Positions 36,453 to 56,232 of a DNA stretch of 64,000 bases are shown here, piece after piece. Both the position numbers and the translations under genes were made by a program. The DNA comes from Microthyrium microscopicum (taxonomy: Eukaryota). The stretch lies in NCBI GenBank assembly GCA_010405405.1, contig MU004237.1, forward strand, positions 2,057,345 through 2,121,344, written 5' to 3'. Numbering within the stretch: position 1 is the first letter of the stretch; each line of letters begins with the position of its first letter. The notes below the pieces were generated by a model that saw only the letters and a program-made list of their open reading frames with translations, was not told the origin of the DNA and did not search any database.

Positions 36453-37362
36453 TAATGCCAAAAAAACATGGAACAGGCAAAAAATATGTACAAGGTCAGA
36501 CTGCAGCCAGTTCTCTACAATGAAATTTGTTTGACACTAGCCGCCAACGAAATTGTAAAATATGCAGCATACGCTTTGGACAACGATGGCTACCACCAGT
36601 TCACATGGCACTGGATAAGGTATAAAGTCTGAACCCCCTCTATGGCAAGGTAAGCGCTCGAATTGAGATCCTGGCCGTTGGGGACTTCTTATCATGTGGC
36701 AGTGACCGTTCACATTGCCATTCCGTTGATCGAAAATCTAGACGAAAAGAATGAGTACTAAACTACTAGTCGTACGTTATATACTAAGTTGTTGCCAAGT
36801 CTCAAGTGAACATGTTGACAGAGTCATAAGCTCCATCTTTTTTTGCCCTCGAAACTTACCTGGTCTTTTGTATTCTATGGGACTAGAGCAATCGACTGTT
36901 AAGCATAGCGGCTTAGATTAATGATTAGCGAAGTTAACATATCCACGGTGGTCACCTTGCCTGCGCCTTAAGTGTCAGTTTAGAGATTGTTCACATGATA
37001 ATGACTTGCAGTAAAGCAAATGAACGAATGTGTAGCATGATAAAGACAGTTCCTTTAATGGTAATTACATCGAGTGTTGTGGAAGGACTGCAGAGAATAA
37101 TGAAATTTGATCTCGGACTGGTCCTCTGATCGCCGTTCTTGCCGGGAGGTGTGGCTGCCATGCGAAGCTGAAGTCATATGCTACTTCCTATCGTGTCATC
37201 ACCACCTAAAGCAGCTGAGTCCAGCTTTCACATTTTGTTCTCAGAGGTTGCCCGCTATGACTGTCTTTAAGCAATGAAGCGCACATCAATATACACCTCT
37301 TCAATATCTGGCTACAACGAATAACTTCCACTTTGCGATTTAGAACCACTAAAAGAACGGGG

Positions 37363-38330
37363 ATGGCGCGAAATTTTCGGTAGGTCCACATGAAAGGGCT
37401 CGTGTATATTCAAAACTAATGATATGGCATGTAGAAATCAACCAAAAAAGCGCTATCACCCCTGTAATGACACTGAACAATCCGCCGATCCGCAGAAGAA
37501 CTCTGGCAAACAGAAGTCTATTCAGCGCGTGCAGCACCGGAGCCGAAACTCAACTGAAAATGCGCCTTCGTATGCTATATCCTTCCCTTCGTACAGCAAT
37601 TTTGACGAACCTTTCTCTTAGACTTCCCGGGTCAGATACCAAAGTCCTTGTCGGCCGACCAGGATTTGACTACATTCCGACAGTCTATATAGTCTCTCGG
37701 GACCTCTTGATTGCAGACTCGGTGATGTTTCAGCGTGAACTCCTAAATGAATCCCCATTTCTTCTCTCATTGGCACGGTGTTATCCGGCTACATTCGACT
37801 TATATCTTCAATATCTCGAAACCAACGAGATCTCCAGCGACGACGTCTGGGATGAAAAGAATGAGAAACAAGAATTAGATCATTACAAAGTCCAGGAGGC
37901 ACTTTTTCACGCCATGCAGTTTGCAAATGAAATACTCAGCGATGGTTTCCACAATATGGCGATAGATGCCTTCATTGATCATTGCGAAGCGCAACGTCGT
38001 TTCTGGGGCGGCGACCCGGAAGAAGTAGTTCTGACAGTTGATGCTGAGGTACCTACACTGACTCTCCTCGTCCGTGATTTCCTCGTGCATGAGGGCATGC
38101 CGTTCTGGTTCGACCTAGGTCGTGATGTGCCGCCAAGATGCGCGAAGTTTTACGGGGAGGTTGCGGCCGAGGCTGTGAAATTACTTGCTGAGGGTGGACG
38201 GCCTGATAGAAATGAGGAGACGCGATGGGAAAAAGTACGTCCTTGGCAGACCAACAAGTGTCGATATCATCGGCATCAGGAGGGGGAGGGTTGTTTGAAT
38301 AGTAATACACCAAAGGACGGCGAGGCTTGA
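37363..38330 (+). CDS. Divergent BTB/POZ-domain protein, array copy 13
   Basis: ATGGCGCGAAATTTTCG|GTAGGT, QPKKRY exon, TKVLVG...PATFDLYLQYL, FANEILSDGFHN, PWQTNKCRYHRHQEGEGC. Confidence 0.82.
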
Positions 38331-38821: not shown

Positions 38822-39863
38822 ATGGGTAAGAATATGAGAATTCTGTACGCAGAACAGATGGAGCATTACAATAAAGGCGGAAGAGCACTCTGGGATCCAC
38901 CGCGCCGCAGTGACATGCGCGTCGGCACTCTGGGCTACTTCAACGATGACCGAGTGTGGAACCCGATGGCTTTGATAACCGATCCGGAGGCAGTGAAGGA
39001 TATTCCTGGGTTGACGCCTATGACTGCAAGAGTTAAAAGCTTCGAGGAGGAAGAAGCGAATTGGAGTCCATTGAAGTCTTCGAATGTTGCAGAGATTGGG
39101 CCGAGTTTGGAATTGGCTGTCTCGTAAGTACCCGCCTTGCTTGTAAGACATGAAGTACTCATTGAGTATAGTGCTCCAGGACTTCCAATCGAAGCTTCAG
39201 CATCATTGACCCTGAAAAACAGCGATGACTTTGGCTGCGTTCTCACGGTCTCCAACCCTGTCAAGAAAGAAGGGTACTACGGCCCCGAAGGACCCTGGAG
39301 AAGCTGGATGGACGACAACCTAAAAGCAATTCAAGACTACATGACCAAAGCAGACGTCAAGAAATACGGACTCTTCATCGTGACCAAAACCTACAGTGTC
39401 AAGTCCGCTATCATCGCCATCAAAGATGGTAGATCCAGCAAAGTCGCCTTGGGATTCAGTGCAAAAGTGCCAGCAATCGGAGAGCTCGGACCTCATGCCG
39501 ATTGGAGTAAGACGACGAGCGATGAGGCGATTTTCAAGTTTGATTCAAAGGGGGATGATATGAGGGTGGTGATTGTGCAAGGAATTTACTTTACGCTCAA
39601 CTTTTTCAATAAGGTAAGATTGATGGGGTTATTGGAAGTGGCGCTGACGTGGATAGATCGTGTCTGGTGACACTCGCAAATTGCCTATGAATTCGGGGCC
39701 TGGTGCGCCATCGGCTGAGAAGAAGACAGTATTTAGGCCGAAGACGGTTGATTATGAAGTAGACCATTTGCAGAAGGGTAAAAAGATGGTTCATTCGGCT
39801 ACAATTGAGACGGAGATGGTTGGAGAGATGGAAGAGGCGCCAGAGGAGGAAGAGGATGTCTAG
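38822..39863 (+). CDS. Hypothetical 316-aa protein, putative gasdermin-like pore-forming protein (3 exons)
   Basis: Introns 39124-39171 and 39614-39656 give a clean ORF. Motifs GRALWDP...RVGTLGYF, alternating small/hydrophobic strands (IEASASLTLK, VALGFSAKV), FGCVL, YGLFIVTKTY and an acidic C-terminal tail. The gene model is solid; the family call is by-eye pattern recall. Confidence 0.55.
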
Positions 39864-40216
39864 AGTATCGCGTAGACTTGAGCATCACTTTCCATACTTA
39901 AATAGCGGTTTCATTGATGATAAAATCAAAATTGCTCTCATGAGAAATTAAATGATGAAATCCTCCAAGAGATGAAGTTAGAAGAGGATGGTTGATGATG
40001 GAACCAGGAAAATAGAGGGACGCGACTCGGCGGCAACCTCAATTGCTCCCAGCAACCAGGAAACCTTGCCCCCACCACATGCAATCTTCATAAACATCTG
40101 TCCTTCCCAACGAAACTCACTGCCTAATTTCCCTCTCAAGATTTTATAAGACCGTCTTCCGTCAACTGTAGTCTCGCGGGTAATCACCTTACAAACCTCT
40201 CTCACCCACGGCGAAA

Positions 40217-44590: not shown

Positions 44591-47041
44591 ATGAGAGGAT
44601 GGTTCTCTGGTCGGGCTCGCGGCTCGAGCCAGTCGCTCAATTCCTTGGAGGAGCCGGCGTCATGTAAGTTTTGGATGATTTTTGTTGAATTGATTGCTAA
44701 CAATGCCTAGTAGAAAATGCTCTACAAGGTGAACAATTTGTTCCTGGAAAATAAGCTGGACAATGTACTGACAACGGGGACAGCTGCAAGCCACATCATG
44801 AATGACGATATGGAGCTTGCGGAGTCTGAACTGTCCAAGGAGAACACATCTTTTCACAAGGTATTCAAATTCTTGAGTAACCCATACATTTCATGGGTGC
44901 TTTCTCCGATGCACGAAAGATTTGAACTGACATGGTTTACAGCTCGGTCTAGGCCTTCTCAGTTTCCTCAAGGCTGTCTTAGGTTTCGAAAGAGAACTCA
45001 TGGCTGAAGGTACTCAAGAGCTTCTTCTCCCGCTCAAATCATGTCTCTAACCAGTTATTAGCTCAAGAACGTCTTAACGCTGCCGAAACCCAGGCAACAG
45101 AAAGCTACAATCGAGTTAAACATCACTCAAGCCACTCTCAGTCACAAATATACTCCCCAGGCTCAGAATTTCTACTATGTCAAGCTCAGGTTCAAATAAT
45201 GGGAGCAGTAATTGGGGTTCTTACAGAAAGCGTCACAGAGAGTCTAAGAGGCTTCTACAAACTCCGCAAAGCCTACCTGACCCTCGATGTTCTCCTTGCT
45301 GAGGAGAATGCATATCTCAAGAAGCTAGAGGCAGAAGGCGGCAAACCCATCAAATTCGAATCTGAGACCACTGATTCATCAACTAGTGCAAGCGCTGAAC
45401 CATCAAGAGCAGCGTCTACTACAGATCTTACCCAAGAGCTTGCTGGCAAAGACTTTGGTGCGAAAAGGGCTGCTCCTGCGGAAGCTGAAAGTGATGCAGA
45501 TGAGTTCTTTGAGGCTGCGGAAGTTCCAGAAGAACTGCCCGAAAGCACACCGCAGGTTGAGAAAGATTTGAGTGATGCAATGGACTCTGCCACAATCAAG
45601 GACGCAGACGGCGTTCCAGCACCTCTACTTCGTCGTCTTTCTTCACATATCCAAGAAGGACCGGATGCCGAGATCTTTACGAATTCAATCGATGCCTTTG
45701 TGCATTCTTCGTCGAATCTCTGCTATGGGATGCTTCTACTCTTGCTTTCCATGCTTCCACCAGCCTTCAATACACTTACGAAGATTGCGGGCTTTAAGGG
45801 TGATAGGCGGCGCGGTATTGCATTGCTTTGGCAGGCAAGCAAGTTTGGCAACCTGAATGGTGCTTTTGCTGGACTTGTTGTACTGGGCTACTACAACGGT
45901 TTCATTGGCTTCTGTGATATTTTGCCCGAGACAGGATCTGGTGCCTATCCAAAGGAACGATGTCAGGAATTACTAGAGACATCTAGAAAGCGATATCCCA
46001 AGGTATGTACTACCATTCTCGTGCTTCGGCTTTACTAAAATTACCCATAGAGTGGTTTATGGATGCTAGAAGAAATCCGATCGCTATCCAACGAGAGACG
46101 ACTAGAAGAGAGCCTCGAAAGGTTAAAAAACATGCCCGACCCCAAACTAAAACAAGTCCACGCCCTGAAATCCTTCGAAGCAAGCATGTGCACCATGTCC
46201 CTCCACCACTACGAAGAATGCTCCGACTACTTCCAAGCGGCATGTCCTCATCTCCATCTCAACCGACGTATAGCTAACAGTCCTCTAGATGGTCAAGTTA
46301 AACAATTGGTCCCACGGCCTCTACTACTACATCGCGGCGTGCGCCCACATCGAACGCTACCGCGAACTCCTCCCCACCGACCCTGAAAAGGCAGCCGAGC
46401 AAGCAGAAAAAGTAACAACCCTCTTCACTATAATTCCAAACCATATTGGTAAAAAGCGCATCATGGCTAAACAAATGCCCTTTGATGTCTTCGTCGCCCG
46501 CAAACTTGCCAAATGGACTGCTCGCGCGGCTCAACACTCTGTTCCACTCATCGATGCCGTCGGTGTGAGTCCTTTGACGGAAATGGTATATTTCTGGAAC
46601 GGCTTCAAGCGCATGGGCAATGTTCAACTGGAAAAGTCTCTTGTATGTCTTGGGCGCAGCCAAACTTCCACCAGCATACCCTGGGAGACCGAGGACGTTG
46701 ATGAGAAAGCTATATTATCTGTGATGAAAGGCGTGGTGCATAGACATATGGGGAAGACGCACGAGGCACGTGTAGAATTGGAGAGTGTCACGGCGAAAGA
46801 ACGCACATTATTCAAGGGCGGGAACAAGGATAATTGGGTGGCTCCCGCGGCACATTATGAAATGGGTGTGGCGGAGTGGGTCGACTATAAGGCCACGGGG
46901 GATCAGGCTTGTTTGGAGAAAGCGCAGAAGTGGTTGGAGGTATCTGCGGGTTGGGAGGCCTATGATTTGGATGCGAGAGTTGGTATTCGTGTCAAGACGG
47001 GGTTAGAGACTGTGAAGAGGGAGAAAGGGGAGGCCGTTTAG
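44591..47041 (+). CDS. IML2: Iml2/TTC39-family protein (multi-exon)
   Basis: HIMNDDMELAE, YSPGSEF, GAVIGVLTESVTESLRGFYKLRKAY, GFKGDRRRG, NNWSHGLYYY, PFDVFVARK, W..P.AHYE, YDLDARVG. Confidence 0.9.
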
Positions 47042-47709
47042 ATGGAAACGGAGAGATTGTCTTTATATAGGACATTTGATATATAAAAATGGAAGATACA
47101 TGGTGGTCATTATATTCATCTGTTCATTCATATGAGGCCACGTTCGTTGAGCATCACACGCAAAGCAGGACTCAAATATCAAACCTACAGTACTAGGCCT
47201 TAAGTCTCCGTAGATTCCCCGCATATCCGTGCACGCGCGCCCATAAAACGCGTCCACCACAATTACTATCTTCTTCTTCTTTTAACAACCATGCCTCTAA
47301 TAAGGACTCCCTTAAAGTAATTATTTAGCGAGAGGATCCCTAATACTTAATATATACCCTTATAAAAAGGCATAATTATTAGCTAAGCGGCTAACTTAAA
47401 AAGGCTTACTCAAATCGCTAGGGATCTTAAGATCTCTATTAACTCTATTTACTATGTTTTAAATAACTAAGAGAATATTACTCCTACTAATACTTATTTA
47501 AAACAACGTAGCCACCTAAAGATATATTCTCGTTAAGATGTCTTATAGATTATCTACGAAGTTTAAAAAGAGCCTTTTATTACCTATAGAGCCCTTAAAG
47601 CACAATTAAACCTACCCTTTAGCCAAAAAGTAGTTAAGAAGATTATTAGCGTTTTTAACGTTAAAAAATAGCGCGCTACTTATTATTTATTACTTATCTA
47701 GGAACTTAT

Positions 47710-47930
47710 TATAAGGATTCCTCATAGGTTTGGTGTTTGGTGTTAGATCTAGAGATCTAATCTTGTAGATAAGATCTCTTTATCCCGTTTGGAGTTAGTG
47801 TATCTAAGGATCCCTTAGGCCCTATATCTTTATATCTATAGCTCTATCTTTAGATCTCCTCTCTCTATACGTAGATTCTATAATATTAGCTATATTTTGC
47901 TTGCTTAATTATACCTAATAGCTCCTTATA
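47710..47930 (+). repeat. 5' LTR (221 bp)
   Basis: Aligns without gaps to 55144-55364; differences are C/T or G/A transitions. Confidence 0.93.
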
Positions 47931-50900
47931 TAATCTATATACCTCTATACTAAAAAATAACTCTATACGTTTATTATATATTACTAAATTGCTGCTAGCT
48001 AAAGTTATGCTTAAATCTACTAAATAATAATAATATATTAGTAGTACTATCCTTAGTTAGGATTAGCGCTATTTAGACCCTTATAGAAGGTACTAGTAAA
48101 GCTACAAATACCTAATTAAATAAATACCTTTTTAGCGTTATTTGCTAAAATAAAGAGTACGAAGTAGTTAAAGCGTTTACCCTATTATGTTCTTCTACTA
48201 ATAATCTATAGAGGCATTTCTATATCTTCTCTACTTACTATTTACTTATATATACCTTATCCTTTATCTAAAAATATTCGTTATTTTATTATCTTAGTTC
48301 TAATAATAATAGAAATAATATTATTATAGATTTTTAGAATAACTAGCGCGTTAATTATAGTATGCTACTTTATCCTCTTTATCTTAAATATAAGTACTTA
48401 TAATCTTATTTATTAGAGCGCTCTTTATCTCTTTATAACTTATATAGACGCTTTTTAAAGGCTATATTAGTTATATTAAATATAGAAGCTAATTAGATAT
48501 TAACCTTATAGTTAACCCTTTAATATAAACTACTTAATATCTAAGATTTTATTAAACTTTCTCTAATACTTAAAAAAAATGAAGGACTCTTTAATAATAA
48601 AGATACTAAATTCTTACGTTAGAGCGCTATAAATATTTATAAAGTAGAAAAAGCTTCTAGAGTAGTACTTATTATAGTATTAATAAAAGAGCTAGGACTA
48701 GAGAAAGAGGTATTAACCTTTAGTACTACCTAAATTACTAGCCTTTTTATAATAAAGGTAATTAAAGGAAAAGAACGTATAGTAAAAGCGTTAGATAATA
48801 GTAAAGTATGTCTTCTAAAAGATATATAACTCTAGTTAGATTTACTACTTAGTTAACCTAATCCTCTAAATATTCCTTTAGGATTCCTTTCCTATTTACC
48901 TATTATATCTATAGACCTAAACTACTAGGTTGCTTTATTAGTAGTAGATAAGCCTTTATTTATATAGGCCTTATATAGAATTAGACTAAAATAAAGAAAA
49001 TAAGTATTAGTAATTTGCTAAGATAAAATAGATCTATTAAACCTAGTATAGGATTAATACCTTACTATTAAAGGAGGAGATTTCTTATACTACTATATTA
49101 AATTTAGCTACCTTAAAGATTTCTTTAAATAACTTTATATTGCGCTAATAATATTATAGACTATAGCTCTTTACTATTAGTCTTTAAGATTAGTATAGGA
49201 TACTATTATAAAGAACTTCTTAGAATTAAACTTTAATATAACTTATCTTAAGAAGTTATTTAAAACCTTATAGGAAAAAGCTATAGATTAGTAACGTTTA
49301 ATAGAGGACGTTTAAGCCTATATTAACTAACTATAACGTAACTATACTATTAAATTAAATATAGTACGCTAGTTAGAATAATAGACTATTATAAAGCTAG
49401 AGACTAAATAAGCTACTAACCTTTAATATTAAGAATTAGTTAGCTTACTACGCGCTAAGATTACTAAACTAGAAGAATAGCTATAAGTAGTATTAGTTAT
49501 AGTACTACTCCTTTATATTAATTATAAAAATTTAGAAGATGATGCTATTCTAAGTTATTATATATTAAACTCTATACGTTTAATAGTATTAGGTAATATC
49601 TAACCTATAGAAATATAATATTTAACTTTATTATTAACTACTATAAGCGTAGTAAATAGTTACCCTTATTTTAAGAAACTTAGCAACTTTACTAGAATTA
49701 ATATAACTAAGTATAAAATATAGAAGAAGAAGATGCTTAACGTCCTACTTAATAATAAGGCATATTTATACGTCCTAATAGAGAAGAAAAAGATTAAGTT
49801 TATTTACTAACGCTTTATTAGTATTACTTATAACCTTACTATTATTTAAGGAGGTAAAGAATTAAAGAACTTATATAAGTATATAAATAAGATATAAGCT
49901 AATCTAAATAGCTACTTTTGTTCTAAAAATGGTTTTAAAGACGCTAAAGCTTAGTTAAAATTACCTAAGGTAAAAATAAAGGATTCTAAGACTCTTTAAG
50001 GGTTTCTAAGACAATTTAAAGCTAACTCTATAAATATAGAACTTAATAAATAAGAGAAGATTATTAAACTTAAAGATCTTATCCTAAAGAAGTTTATAAA
50101 CCTATTAGTAGCTTATAATATTAAAGACTTTACTATCTTCTATACCTAACTCTATAACGTTAGTTATTATATTAACTATAAACTAAATACTAACATAAAT
50201 CTAAATAATAATAACCTATATTAGAATAACTTACGTTAGGTAAATAATTAATCTTCTAATTAAGGAAGTAATACTAATACTAAAAATAATAATATTTCTT
50301 AACCCCTAGATATATTCTAAGTACTAAAGGCTAAGAAATATTATATTTATTATAGTAAAAAAAGATATTATACTAATGCTAAGAACCTACTTTATAAGGG
50401 TTAAGAGCTATTATCTAATTAGAAGATTAAAGCTAAAGTTACTTAACTAGCTATAGTATTTACGTGCGTATATTAAGGTTAATAGCCCTTCGTTAAGAAA
50501 GCTTAAGATAAAGATAACTACTATTTATTAAACTAGATACTTCTTTACTAAGCTATAAGGAGGAGCTAAATAAGAATAAAGCGCAAAATAAATAAAAGAA
50601 ACGTTAGAATAACTAACTTAATACTTAACTACCTAATATTAAAATTAATAAATAAAAAGCTAAGAAGACCTTTCATAAAAATAAGAAGGTTATTATTAGA
50701 TATCTATATTATTATATTAAGCGCCTTAAATATAAAGAAGTAGTCTATAAGGGCTATATTATACTAGTATACTTTTAAGCTATTTATATATTACTAACTT
50801 TTATTATACTTATAGTATAGCTAAAGGATATTAAAAAGAAAGACTCTATTATTAGATCCTAGTAGACTATAGTAGGGTAAGTTTACGTCCTATATAGTAA

Positions 50901-53900
50901 AGCATATTTTAATATAGATATTTTAATTAATATAGGTAGTAGCACTATAAGTATTATTAATCCTTACTACTTAAAATAATATAGTATACTAATATTTAAC
51001 CTAACTTAACCTTAAATTATTAAGCTTACTAATAGTAAGTCTATTTCTATAGTTAATAAAGCTACCCTTATTAATATCTATATTAGCTACTATATTGAAT
51101 AGCTTAGTTATTTCGTTATAAAGGTTGCCTTATATAACCTTATATTAGGAGCGCCTTAGATAAACTAATATAAAGTTAATCTCTATAAGGGATTAAGAAC
51201 CTTAACCTTTAGTAGTATACAATGCATTATTAATTATATTATATTACGTTGCCTAATATTAGTAGATCTAAAAGGACGTATAATTAATCTTCTCCTTCTT
51301 AATAATATAGATATTATATTTATATTAGCTATGGCATTTAAGAAGCTTTTAAAGTATAAAGACGCTATTATTAACGCTTTTTAGCTAGAAGATTTTAAAA
51401 AGATAAAAGACGATAGAATAATAAATAAAGATAATAATAATAGAGAAGTAATAAATCTCTTTACTTATACTATCTTTAAAAAGGATTATATTAAATAGTA
51501 GGATAAGTAGGATAGCTTATATATATTACAAGAAGAAATACTAAAGCTTATTCTAGAAGAGTTCTAATAATACTTTAAGGTCTTTAACTTAAAATAAGCT
51601 AATACTCTTATACTATATTAAGGTAAATTTAATTACGCTATTAACCTTATTCTAAATATAAAAATACTAAAACGTTATCCTATCTTAATATCCCTAAAAT
51701 AAGTATTAGTAGTAAAGTAGTATATAGAGCAATTATTAGTACGTAGGTTTATAGGGCCTTCTAAATCTTAATATGCTATACTAATACTTTATATTAGCAA
51801 GCTAGGTAGTAGTATTAGAGTTTATATTAATTATTATAAACTTAATAAAATTACTATTAAGAATAGTAATGTTCCTCTTTTTATTAATAAAATACTTACG
51901 TATTTAATATATATAAAGTTTTACTTAAAATTTAACGTTATTATAGCGTTTAAATAGATTTAGATTAAACTTAGAGATAAGCATAAAATAGCTTTCCTTA
52001 CTTAATATAGCTTCTTTAAATTTAATATCCTTTTCTTTAGTCTTATAGGGGGACTAGGAATATTTTAATCTTACGTTAACTACGCATTAATATAATTCCT
52101 TAATAATTTTATTACTATCTACTTTAATAATATCTTAGTCTTTAGTAAGACGTTAGAGAAATATAACGTATATATTTATCTTATCTTAGATATATTAGAA
52201 CGTATAGGTTTATTCCTAGATATTAAGAAGTCTAAATTCTATATCTAGGAAGTTAAATACCTTAGTTTAATTATTACTACTAAAGGCATTAAAATAGATT
52301 TTGCTAAGGTTTAGGTAGTACTAGAATAAGAATAACTAGTATACTTAAAAGACGTTTAAGCGTTTCTTAAATTTACTAATTTCTATTATTACTTTATATT
52401 TAGCTACTTAGCTATAGTAGCGCTATTAACTAATCTTATAAGAAAAGACGCTATTATAGTTTTCTTATAGAATTTAGAGGAGCTAGAGAAGAGAGCATTT
52501 AAAGCTTTTAAAAAAGCTTTTACTTTTACTCCTATCTTTATCTACTTTAACTATAATAAAGAAACTTAGGTAGAAATAAATACTTTAGATTAGGTATACG
52601 TAATAGTATTATTATAAAAAGATGCTAATAAAGATCTTAAACTTATTACGTTCCTATCTAAGAAGATAATACTTATAGAATATAATTATAATATTTATAA
52701 TAAGGAGCTGTTAGCTATTATTTAAGCTTTTAAAGAATAGAAACCTAAACTCTTTAGTATAGAAGATATTATTAAGGTTTTTTTAGATTATTAAAACTTC
52801 TAGATATTTATAAAAATAAAGAAGCTTACTTATCGTTAAATATAATAGGCTAAATTCTTATTATAATTTTACTTCCTTATTAAATATTGCCTAGGAATAG
52901 CTAATAGTAAAGCTAATGCTCTTATAAGATATTCTTAAGATCTTCTTTAAAGTAATAATAATCTATAGATTACTTAGTAGTATTAACTACTTTTATTTCC
53001 CTACTAGTTTAGTACGAAGAAGGTAGTTAAGCTTACTATAATTCTTATTAACTCTATTACCTTATTCTTTTTATAAGTAGCTATAATTATAGCAAATAAG
53101 TTAGATACTACTATAATAAGGGAATTATATTTAGAATCTATTATAGAGAGCCTTTAGAATAAGGCTTTAGCTAGTTTAGATAATTCTCTACTAGTTAATA
53201 AGAAATTTCTAAACTTTGCTCTAGAATAGTTCTTAAAAGAGATAATAAAGGTAAGTAAGGTTAATAAGCTATTAATTATAATTTAACTAGCTAAAGTACA
53301 AAAAGACTACTTTCTACCTTTTAATATTCCTAACTAAGAGTATATTAAGTTAATAGATTATAAAGCTATACTAAATAGCATAGTGCTCTACTAGTAAAAG
53401 CTCTTTATTTTTACTATCTATTTATACTATAAAGCTATAAAGTAGGCTTATTAATATAAGGTAATAGAATATAGAGAAGTTATAATAATATACTATTATT
53501 TATAGTAAGACTACTAGTAGCTATATATATTAGAGTTAGTAAAGACTTTTATTAAGGGTTATTACTATATCTTTACTAAACTTATACGTTAAAAGAAGTA
53601 AGGCTTATTAAGATCCTTCTTACTACTAAAGTATACTTAGTTAGATATTTCTATTAACTTTACTATCTCTTTACTAAGATATACTTACTAAGGAATTATC
53701 TATTACTATATTATAGTTATAGTTAATTACCTTATATAATCCTAGAGATTTATTACTCTTCCTAACCTATTAGTTAAAATAATAGTTATAGCGTTTATTA
53801 ACTACGTCTAGAAGCTTTATAATTAGCTAGATTCTATCTTATTAGATAGAGGAACCTAGTTTATATTAGTATTTTAGGGCTACCTTTATAAACGTATTAG

Positions 53901-55048
53901 CGTTACCTTAAAGCTAAGTATAGCTTAGTATCCTAAAATAGATAGAATTATAGAGATCTTAATTACTATACTTAAATAATACCTATGCTTATTTATTAAC
54001 TAGGATTAAGATAATTAGGCTTTATTATTATCCTTTACTAAGTTTATAGTTAACTTAGTAGTAAGCGCTACTATAGACTTTGTACTATTTAAGGCTTAGA
54101 ATAGCTTTCTTTTAAAATTAGAATTAGAGTTAGCTTATTATCTACTACCTAAAGCTTTATATAAATCTATAGTAGCTTATAAGGAAGTTACCTTAATAGA
54201 TTACGTTTAAGATAGTAGAGAAAAGTTATACTAGTTTTTAAAGAAATAACTAGTATAGGCTTAGTTATAGCAAAAGCTCTATGCTAATAAGTACTAGCGT
54301 CTAGTATCTAATCTTTATTTAGAAAATTAGGTTTATCTTAATATTTATAACTATAATATAATATATCTTTTAAAAACGCTTAATAATAAGAGCGTAGAAC
54401 TATTTAAAGTCCTTTATAAGATTAATAGTATTACTTATAAGTTAGATTTACCTAAGTTAATAAAAATATATCTAGTATTTTATACTTAACTATTATACCC
54501 TATTAACGATAAGGCTAAGCTTCTTAAGGAAGTTAATCTTCTACTAGCTACTATTAGTAAAATTAAAGGTAAAGAAGAATAGCTTATAGACGCTATTACT
54601 AATAGTAAATAGGAAGGCTATAGTAAAGACAAGGTCCTTAAATATAGAATTAAATAGAATAGTTATTATAATAAGAGTTAGTAACTATAGTAGAACGTAA
54701 TTAATATGCCTAATACTATCTTAGAGTTTTATTATCTATATCTTAATAAACTAGGTCTATATTCCTTATAGAAGCTACTAAAGCCTAACTAAGAAGAAGA
54801 TTATAATATTAATAGTCTACCTATAGATTAGGATCTTGCTATATAAAAGTACTTTATTTTTATAGTTTTATACCCCTTGTTTTAGGTTTAATTTAATAAT
54901 ACTACTATTAAGATTATTAAATACTATAGACTAGCTTAAATAGATATCTCTACCTTTATTAATAGGTTTAGATAGTTACTAGGGTTAGTAAATAACGTAT
55001 TATAGTTTCTCTTAGTAGTAATATATATAAAGGAGTTTAGTATTCATA

Positions 55049-55092
55049 TAGACTAGACTAGACTAGACTAGACTAGCCTAGCCTAGCCTAGA
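55049..55092. repeat. Pentanucleotide microsatellite (TAGAC)n(TAGCC)n in the Gypsy 3' region
   Basis: tagactagactagactagactagactagcctagcctagcctag. Confidence 0.85.
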
Positions 55093-55143
55093 ATAAAATA
55101 GATTAAAATAGCCTAGGAGGTCTATTTTAGAAGAGGAGAGTTA

Positions 55144-55364
55144 TATAAGAATTCCTTATAGGTTTAGTATTTAGTATTAGATTTAGAGATCTAATCTTGT
55201 AGATAAGATTTCTTTATTCTATTTAGGGTTAGTATATCTAAGGATCTCCTAGGCCCTATATCTTTGTATCTATAGCTCTATCTCTAGATCTCCTCTCTCT
55301 ATACGTAGATCCTATAATATTAGCTATATTCTGCTCGCCTAATCGTACCTAATAGCTCCTTACA
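55144..55364 (+). repeat. 3' LTR (221 bp)
   Basis: Ends in ...TACA, followed by the TSD CTTAT (55365-55369); preceded by AGAAGAGGAGAG. Confidence 0.93.
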
Positions 55365-56232
55365 CTTATAGACCTTTGCTTAGAATTCGCGGAAGAATAT
55401 AAGAATTAGGAGGCTAAGGATTAGGATATTGTTTAGTTCTCTAACGAGTATTCTATTAAGTAAGGTATTAGTTTAGAATAACTATAGTATTTTTATCTAC
55501 TAAAATAAAAATATGATAAAGAGATAGTTAATCCGTACCTAAAGAGAAGGCAAATATCTCTTATAGTTTATGCTATAATTAACGATTCTTATAGTTACTT
55601 AGAATTATATTTTATAACGAGGAATAAGAAGTCTAAAAAGAATAGCTATTCTACTAACTCCTATATTCTTACCCTTAACGAAATTCTTATTTCGTTATAT
55701 AAACTAGGAGAGTTATATTAATAAAATAACGCTTCTATTTATATAGCTAAAAAATCGCAAAAGTAGCTTAAGGATTATAGAATTTAAGTTATAAAATAGC
55801 TACCTTACTCGCTAGATCTAAACCCTATTAAGAACGTCTAGGCATAACTTAAAAATATCCTCTATAAAATCTATTTAGAACTTAAAGATATATATAGAAA
55901 AGACGAGTAGACAAAGGAGTACCTAAAGTAATATATTTTAGAGGTATAGGACGAGTTAGACCTAGATTATATTGCAAAATATACTCGTAGTATACTAGAA
56001 CGACTTTAGGCGGTAAAGGACGCTAAAGGGTAGTATACAAAGTACTAAAAATCAAATCTCATAATTTCTGAAACTATGCCTAAATAGGCCTGATCTTTGG
56101 CTTCGTATTTCTATTATTTTGGAGAAAATCCGAGCCGAAATGGCCTAGTAATTTGGGTTGGAAGATCGGCGGTTGATTTCTTAGTTTTGGGGTGGATCTC
56201 AAAAATACGGAGACTTATGGACACCTACTGTA

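Follow-up and report, generated by a model that had tools for sequence, protein, structure and literature searches.

Gasdermins, present in animals, fungi and bacteria, kill cells by forming pores; they are the executioners of pyroptosis, and the evolution of regulated cell death is reconstructed with the help of their fungal and bacterial relatives. Here we describe a gene in a 64-kb stretch of DNA from Microthyrium microscopicum (contig MU004237.1; the whole stretch is called the window, and all positions are window coordinates), where three exons at 38822–39863 on the + strand encode a 316-residue protein with a predicted gasdermin fold. The closest described systems differ in their control. 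HET-Q1 sheds a fragment of ~5 kDa on activation (PMC8851545), HET-Q1-like members carry an inhibitory peptide of 38–43 residues (PMC13475620), and a protease lies within 10 kb of 80% of het-Q1 homologs, the other 20% being without one (PMC8851545). RCD-1 proteins are single pore domains of 244–257 residues that lack a tail and are activated on meeting the other allele (PMC12881547), and their control is not by cleavage (PMC12881547; PMC13475620).

To judge from predicted models, the window protein very probably has a gasdermin fold, and it is at this level, that of the fold, that it belongs to the superfamily. We probably have here, as the best explanation, a pore-forming protein of cell-death type that is made as an inactive precursor and would be activated post-translationally by a factor whose gene lies elsewhere; the pore formation, cell death, autoinhibition by the tail and trigger that this entails are what we infer by analogy with known gasdermins.

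Predicted fold and sequence link to gasdermins

Residue numbers refer to the 316-residue protein unless P0004 numbering is named, P0004 being the deposited protein of this locus, to whose residue numbers 4 must be added. An AlphaFold2 model of P0004, based on an alignment of 150 sequences including the query and hence 149 homologs, had a mean predicted local distance difference test score (pLDDT) of 84.3 and a predicted template-modelling score (pTM) of 0.79, with pLDDT below 50 only at 194–202 of the model. When this model was compared with the PDB using Foldseek, gasdermin entries occupied every listed row down to rank 18, four of them at E ≤ 1e-3, led by 8sl0 (1.9e-4), the RCD-1 pore 8jyz_B (3.9e-4) and GSDME 9h5m (4.4e-4); the matches span bacterial gasdermins, the RCD-1 pore, GSDME, GSDMD, GSDMA3, GSDMB and the Trichoplax gasdermin. 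A search of 48,161 chains with VIA-align, which does not involve Foldseek, placed gasdermins at ranks 1–14 (Z 10.8–5.8), with 8sl0_A at the top (Z 10.8, root-mean-square deviation, rmsd, 3.7 over 162 residues), followed among others by GSDME (8.0), RCD-1-2 (7.8), RCD-1-1 (7.6) and the Bradyrhizobium bacterial gasdermin (7.5), while folds of the MACPF/cholesterol-dependent cytolysin (CDC) type first appeared at Z 5.0 and then lower. A model of the Alternaria homolog P0006, obtained from a different alignment (pLDDT 83.1, pTM 0.82), again retrieved gasdermin entries at ranks 1–18 of the PDB structural search and ranks 1–12 of the wide search. The first-pass annotation, made from the DNA letters, had proposed a divergent cell-death effector with a gasdermin fold and had named AlphaFold modelling followed by structure search against gasdermins among its checks; gasdermins come out on top in Foldseek with the P0004 model and in the other structural searches with both models. 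Among the structure neighbours of the 262-residue P0004 sequence in the ESM Atlas, Bact_GSDM and Gasdermin clusters are found at TM 0.45–0.50, and the nearest clusters (TM 0.72–0.76) are unnamed fungal proteins.

A relation to proven gasdermins is also detectable in sequence comparisons. Profile A1, searched against 177,635 distinct PDB sequences, gave four matches at E ≤ 10, all four to gasdermins (7n50, 0.019; 9v2s, 0.029; 7n52, 0.034; RCD-1-2, 0.5), and profile A2 gave five, of which four are the same gasdermins (best E 0.016; RCD-1-2, 0.86) and the fifth a beta-galactosidase (0.76). This profile evidence is weak in each match and consistent across matches, nearly all of them pointing to one small family. 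The stretch that matches bacterial gasdermins is a helix with W146 and N150, followed by the strand GLFIVTKTY; the same W and N (142 and 146 in P0004 numbering) are conserved in at least 90% of the family. Here the alignment reads pfrkWvkeN...GLwiVtkTY against SLRNWLNDN...GNFFVATS of 9v2s_A and 7n52_A, and against NFFVVTKVW of 7n50_A, the near-invariant W and N being identical in the Runella-type bacterial gasdermin. Further along, in the region of the second candidate hairpin, the family consensus was aligned with VPGIGEFAPEVGW of RCD-1-2 (8jyz_B), where the window protein has VPAIGELGPHADW.

Several observations weigh against the gasdermin assignment. The sequences folded were the 262-residue P0004 and the 316-residue Alternaria homolog P0006, which is 38% identical, and not the joined 316-residue window protein; Foldseek TM-scores to solved gasdermins are low (0.24–0.45), at sequence identities of 6–13%; and single profile E-values are marginal (0.016–0.9). 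At E ≤ 0.01, no Pfam gasdermin model is matched by any of the 150 family members; in a search at E ≤ 10, one of the 150 matches PF04598, at E 0.023. PF26164 (Bact_GSDM) is not among the matches listed for the 150 members at E ≤ 10, and the window protein has no gasdermin match in Pfam even at that threshold, so that, by its sequence, it lies outside Gasdermin (PF04598) and Bact_GSDM (PF26164) as Pfam defines them. Single-sequence matches in Pfam and the PDB (ELM2, Apo-CIII, DUF2505, chlorophyll-binding proteins) were dismissed as noise.

Could the protein have no kinship with gasdermins, being a beta-rich protein that resembles them, or MACPF/CDC proteins, by convergence or through a bias of the predictor? 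The low Foldseek TM-scores, the high rmsd and the lack of a Pfam match would fit, and according to the structural search tool's own note a best Z of 7–8 is common for unrelated models. However, sequence profiles alone pick out gasdermins among the PDB sequences (4/4 and 4/5 matches), ranks 1–14 of an exhaustive structural search are bacterial, fungal and animal gasdermins with a top Z of 10.8, and the second model, from a different alignment, gives the same outcome; we therefore consider a chance likeness highly improbable. Of the first-pass proposal, the fold is thus upheld by profile and structure searches; pore formation or killing, autoinhibition by the tail and a likeness to HET-Q1 in regulation are proposals.

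Gene structure and the family of relatives

Starting from the ATG at 38822, the three exons joined by coordinate give a coding sequence (CDS) of 951 nucleotides, comprising 316 codons with a single terminal stop and no internal stops. X1, the single public run containing this stretch, is stored as contigs, and its label as RNA is a guess. One of its contigs (2445 nucleotides, depth 44.4, 0 mismatches, end at 39961) skips exactly 39124–39171 and 39614–39656, both bounded by GT..AG, and because both introns are missing from it we take this contig to be a transcript. For that isoform, the three-exon model of the first-pass annotation is therefore right and the deposited model wrong; some intron retention may occur, since minor isoforms can be hidden by contigs. 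P0004 (262 residues, "hypothetical protein") starts at the second ATG (38834) and ends in ...FNKVRLMGLLEVALTWIDRVW, which is intron 2 read in frame, so that the exon-3 tail is lost. The joined CDS and the X1 contig bear out the 316-residue open reading frame (ORF) of the first reading, and its quoted motifs, together with a tail exon of ~68 residues with an acidic end, are all present in the sequence: exon 1 contains GRALWDPPRRSDMRVGTLGYF, a match to G.ALW.P...VG.LGYF, and PIEASASLTLK, KVALGFSAKVPAIGELGPHADWSK and GLFIVTKTY are all found in the translated exons. Judged by eye, no predictor having been used, the polar, charged N-terminus MGKNMRILYAEQMEHYNKGGR suggests that a signal peptide is absent. 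The features of the gene are as follows.

38822–39123, + strand: exon 1, codons 1–100 plus 2 nucleotides, with the N-terminal helix and first strands; in the X1 contig with 0 mismatches
39095–39217, + strand: candidate hairpin 1, residues 92–116, split by intron 1 and ending in PIEASASLTLK (39185–39217)
39124–39171, + strand: intron 1, 48 nucleotides, GTAAGT...AG, absent from the 2445-nucleotide X1 contig and also spliced out in the deposited P0004
39172–39613, + strand: exon 2, 1 nucleotide plus codons 102–248, with most of the predicted gasdermin-fold core
39305–39394, + strand: predicted helix with W146 and N150, then the strand GLFIVTKTY, the stretch matching bacterial gasdermins in sequence
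39440–39544, + strand: candidate hairpin 2, residues 191–225, with KVALGFSAKVP, the tip AIGELGPHADW and the return strand
39614–39656, + strand: intron 2, 43 nucleotides, GTAAGA...CTGAC...AG, absent from the X1 contig and kept in the deposited 262-residue model
39657–39863, + strand: exon 3, 68 codons, ending in EMEEAPEEEEDV, with the stop TAG at 39861–39863
39657–39743, + strand: linker, the first 29 codons of exon 3, mildly basic, probably disordered, ending in VFRPK
39744–39824, + strand: counterpart of a predicted beta-hairpin, codons 30–56 of exon 3, TVDYEVDHL...ATIETEMVG, placed by alignment to P0006
39825–39863, + strand: acidic end EMEEAPEEEEDV and stop TAG; the last 20 residues include 10 D/E and no K/R

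By sequence, the protein belongs to a large, unnamed family. Among 1.84 billion cluster representatives, phmmer found 293 at E ≤ 1e-3, 98 at E ≤ 1e-10 and 4 at E ≤ 1e-30 (query counted), which argues that the gene is more than a chance reading frame. Wherever a source names these homologs, it calls them "hypothetical", "unnamed" or "uncharacterized", and none of the 76 profile matches at E ≤ 1e-10 has a precomputed Pfam domain. The family occurs in Ascomycota, including Alternaria, Didymella, Stagonosporopsis, Fonsecaea, Aspergillus californicus, Lasiosphaeria, Claussenomyces and several lichen fungi, and in Basidiomycota, with a member in Gymnopilus; records of Alternaria alternata hold variants at 98, 94, 92 and 83% identity. 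A conserved block, G.AL[YW].P...PG..GYFD...W, is encoded in exon 1. Like P0004, the homologs P0005 and P0012 end in apparent intron read-through, so short family members may often be annotation artefacts, and the deposited models of several homologs are probably wrong too. No description of this family was found in the literature searched, which included passages of PMC8851545, PMC12881547, PMC10197012 and PMC13475620.

Searches with tblastn using P0004 and P0006 found no second copy within the window. The sole metagenome locus returned for exon 2 (L001, 10001–10111) was rejected as a chance occurrence of the word QDYMTKAD inside an 858-residue bacterial lipoprotein-like ORF.

Some relatives are longer. 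P0091, P0100, P0105, P0122, P0140 and P0151 form a subfamily with PPCCGYFDRNGDWNLICN in the core and 447–782 residues in total; their C-terminal extensions are long, of low complexity and probably disordered, with conserved D-E-E-T-L-[KR]-D-x-G and, near the end, S-L-R-R-E-[ST]-R-[SH]-[IV]. P0157, of 735 residues, has no Pfam domain, and searches for longer relatives as fused forms gave only the database model and one 1537-residue protein without Pfam domains. In the ESM Atlas, the N-terminal part of an 801-residue basidiomycete WD40-repeat cluster aligns structurally with the window protein (TM 0.62 by query). This row is a hint that a domain of gasdermin fold may be joined to a WD40 sensor, a fusion of which sequence searches gave no example.

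Candidate membrane hairpins and the exon-3 tail

In the alignment of 150 sequences, columns of high and low hydrophobic fraction follow one another in nearly perfect alternation at 88–112 and 186–197 (P0004 numbering). The two strongest 11-residue windows of period 2 in the core are PIEASASLTLK (102–112) and KVALGFSAKVP (187–197, same numbering), whose scores were attained by the best window of shuffled profiles in 14 and 22 of 2000 cases, respectively. The two alternating small/hydrophobic segments that the earlier annotation had singled out are thereby confirmed as the most strongly amphipathic of the family. Such alternation in the sequences is as expected of segments that would refold into membrane-spanning beta-hairpins, and in order and position the two segments match what we take to be hairpins 1 and 2 of the gasdermin topology. 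Both lie in the least confident parts of the model, with pLDDT dipping to 65 at hairpin 1 and to 47–51 at hairpin 2.

Beyond the core, much of the family has a tail. The last core strand is covered in 112 of the 149 homologs, 78 of which continue for at least 40 residues past it; fewer than 20 residues follow in 24 members, 20–39 in 10, 40–90 in 54 and more than 90 in 24. For the 54 tails of 40–90 residues, in which charges and motifs were counted, the first 22 residues carry a net positive charge in 42 and the remainder a net negative one in 46, with 35 tails showing both; at least five D/E are present among the last 20 residues in 37, and a strict hydrophobic-R-G (h-R-G) motif occurs in the linker in 27. 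The tail of the window protein agrees with this order of charges (+2, +3, then −10), and VFRPK stands immediately ahead of its predicted hairpin; we take the FRP as a variant of the family motif. The P0006 model of this region consists of a linker (247–273, pLDDT 53–60), a hairpin (274–283/286–297, pLDDT 74–89) and then the acidic end.

From these features we favour the following course of events. The window protein would be a cytosolic protein of 316 residues, the first ~245 of which would fold as a gasdermin pore-forming domain, and would be produced as a precursor that is soluble and inactive. Once triggered, it would oligomerise on a membrane, where the segments at ~92–116 and ~191–225 would refold into beta-hairpins lining a pore, and the cell would be killed. 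The C-terminal ~70–80 residues would form a bipartite regulatory tail, comprising a basic disordered linker, a beta-hairpin and an acidic end, which may restrain the pore domain for as long as the linker is intact and the tail in place. Since no protease domain was found nearby among the window ORFs scanned, the gene for the activator would lie in another part of the genome. That the tail is a removable inhibitor we regard as a tentative proposition, somewhat short of an even chance; cleavage of the linker would release a fragment close in size to the ~5 kDa lost by HET-Q1 (PMC8851545).

The tail also supplies evidence on the other side. Where half of the family has h-R-G, the window protein has FRP. 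A hidden Markov model built from 42 homolog tails gave exon 3 a score of 0.4 bits, compared with up to 11.4 for its own shuffles; the tail is therefore conserved in kind and not in sequence, its likeness to the family being one of position, length, charge pattern and predicted structure, without significant sequence similarity. Alignments that include the tail (P0006 compared with the P0004 model) extend over 5–23 more residues towards the C-terminus of gasdermin targets. In tail-less targets the aligned end moves from 237 to 246 in RCD-1-1, from 202 to 210 in RCD-1-2, from 229 to 243 in the Trichoplax pore and from 211 to 223 in GSDMA3, and since the alignments run further into the pore domains of RCD-1-1 and GSDMA3, the tail hairpin may belong to the core. 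In uncleaved bacterial gasdermins the extra aligned residues are the inhibitory peptide (7n50, from 224 to 247; 7n51, to 254, compared with 233 in the cleaved 9a84). On these ambiguous structural alignments, the hairpin could be either a lid or the integral last strand of the core. A two-chain prediction of the core (1–244) with the exon-3 peptide scored 0.75, 0.00 and 0.00 and is evidence neither way.

An integral hairpin, following a long disordered insertion, would suit a gasdermin-fold pore former that works without cleavage, as RCD-1 and the Trichoplax gasdermin do; it would then be activated by a partner protein or an allelic variant, or else by a redox change or a lipid signal, and the acidic end would do no more than adjust its binding to membranes. 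The extension of the alignments by 5–23 residues into tail-less domains speaks for this, but the aligned ranges give first and last residues only, so the equivalence is loose, and in uncleaved bacterial gasdermins those same extra residues are the inhibitory peptide. It has a precedent in RCD-1, a single pore domain without control by cleavage (PMC12881547; PMC13475620), it would fit the lack of a protease domain in the 28 window ORFs of at least 150 residues, and the A. alternata variants could reflect polymorphism; the conserved disordered linker with its h-R-G (27/54), however, resembles a processing site, and we judge activation without cleavage unlikely.

Neighbourhood and comparison with known gasdermins

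Upstream of the gene lies a tandem array of ~12 paralogous BTB/POZ genes (15518–38327), all on the + strand. Eleven of these ORFs (15518–36449) match PF00651; the twelfth, BTB-like ORF (37353–38327) has no Pfam match and is similar by eye, with the motifs ATFDLYLQYL and C.YHRH in common. The X1 contig extends ~1.07 kb upstream of 38500 and, if colinear, across this adjoining ORF; it may cover two genes through overlapping transcripts or read-through, and a single transcript is not implied. Downstream are genes for an Sgt2-like TPR protein, PGK and Iml2, and at ~47000–56000 there is a ~9-kb block of 22–24% G+C, compared with 46–52% around it, with no ORF of at least 80 codons in any frame, which looks like a degraded repeat region, possibly mutated by repeat-induced point mutation.

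Among the 28 ORFs of at least 150 residues across the window, none has an S8, CHAT, caspase or other protease domain or an NLR domain. The S8 or CHAT protease, often NLR-like, that adjoins most HET-Q1-type gasdermins is thus absent from these ORFs, a further point against a cleavage-activated protein. A non-executioner role for the gasdermin fold, as a non-lytic membrane binder, a secretion conduit or a developmental factor, or in a protein that has lost pore formation, a loss proposed for certain animal gasdermins, would sit well with the housekeeping neighbours (Sgt2-like, PGK, Iml2), with the lack of any sensor or protease partner found nearby and with the presence of a spliced contig over the gene in the sole run containing the stretch. 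Function does not follow from a common fold, and the title of one paper on gasdermins (PMC8742441) refers to pore-forming function being lost within the family. Against this, strict amphipathic alternation over 150 diverged sequences is difficult to account for unless the segments insert into membranes or are under some comparable constraint, and a conserved, regulated-looking tail suggests a dangerous activity under restraint; we hold a non-executioner role to be decidedly improbable.

The preferred reading, a precursor that forms pores once activated, would have consequences beyond this locus. If the family forms pores, the fungal gasdermin repertoire exceeds the catalogue seeded with het-Q1, reaches into Basidiomycota and lichen-forming fungi, and includes members without an adjacent activating protease. 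A bolder version, which we put forward as a possibility that may well prove wrong, is that of a third fungal gasdermin lineage, invisible to sequence models, beside the HET-Q1-like and RCD-1-like ones; it would have a device of its own, in which a basic linker containing a conserved h-R-G site is followed by a beta-hairpin that docks and by an acidic end, and this device would mask the pore domain electrostatically until released by an unlinked Arg-specific protease or another signal. If so, surveys seeded with het-Q1 undercount the pyroptosis-like machinery of fungi, and adjacency of a protease is no general rule. The family could receive a profile and a name, and the deposited model at this locus is wrong.

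Compared with known systems, the MACPF/CDC pore formers are the most distant: they have a bent beta-sheet core with segments that refold into membrane hairpins and form the next structural tier (Z 3.4–5.0), but they score clearly below all gasdermins and are much larger, mostly secreted and equipped with extra domains. Bacterial gasdermins (Vitiosangium 7n51/8sl0/9a84, Runella 7n52, Bradyrhizobium 7n50) give the top structural match overall (8sl0_A, Z 10.8) and the best sequence-profile matches (E 0.016–0.09), and they have the W, N and strand motifs in common with the window protein. Unlike theirs, the window gene is eukaryotic and has introns, its product has no listed PF26164 match, and no protease domain was found next to it in the ORFs scanned. 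The N-terminal cysteine that is the palmitoylation site of bacterial gasdermins is likewise lacking in the window protein.

RCD-1-1 and RCD-1-2 of Neurospora crassa (8jyx, 8jyy, 8jyz) are the best eukaryotic structural matches (Z 7.6 and 7.8, respectively; 8.2 for the homolog model), and RCD-1-2 is the sole eukaryotic match of the sequence profiles (E 0.5 and 0.86), with a stretch V-P-x-I-G-E-x-x-P-x-x-x-W in the second hairpin region common to both proteins. In allorecognition of the RCD-1 type, two antagonistic and highly divergent alleles give heteromeric pores, with no inhibitory tail involved. Like RCD-1, the window protein would need no adjacent protease; unlike RCD-1, it has a bipartite tail of ~70–80 residues.

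HET-Q1 of Podospora anserina and the het-Q1-like fungal gasdermins resemble the window protein in being fungal, cytosolic and ~280–320 residues long; in both, the gasdermin pore domain, predicted in the window protein, is succeeded by a small C-terminal extension and not by a large domain; no PDB chain named HET-Q1 was found in the searches made. By sequence, the window protein is of a different family and outside the het-Q1-like set. The survey of Clave et al. 2022 (PMC8851545) gives one M. microscopicum homolog, KAF2670813.1, paired with the S8 protease KAF2670812.1, presumably a different gene, because no S8 domain is present in the 28 window ORFs scanned. The survey tables contain three homologs from Fonsecaea multimorphosa CBS 102226, among which KIX95202.1, the family member of the same strain, is missing, and although OWY-prefixed entries of Alternaria alternata Z7 are present, the family member OWY47114.1 is not; the lineage was therefore not collected by the het-Q1-seeded search. 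In contrast to the het-Q1-like proteins, no protease domain lies near the window gene within the scanned ORFs, and its tail is longer, with ~79 residues past the last core strand and an ordered beta-hairpin in the homolog model. The window protein would thus work like a microbial gasdermin, as a variant lineage that current gasdermin sequence models do not recognise, and its tail architecture, which differs from both the large C-terminal domain of animal gasdermins and the short peptide of bacterial ones, is accessible by simple truncations.

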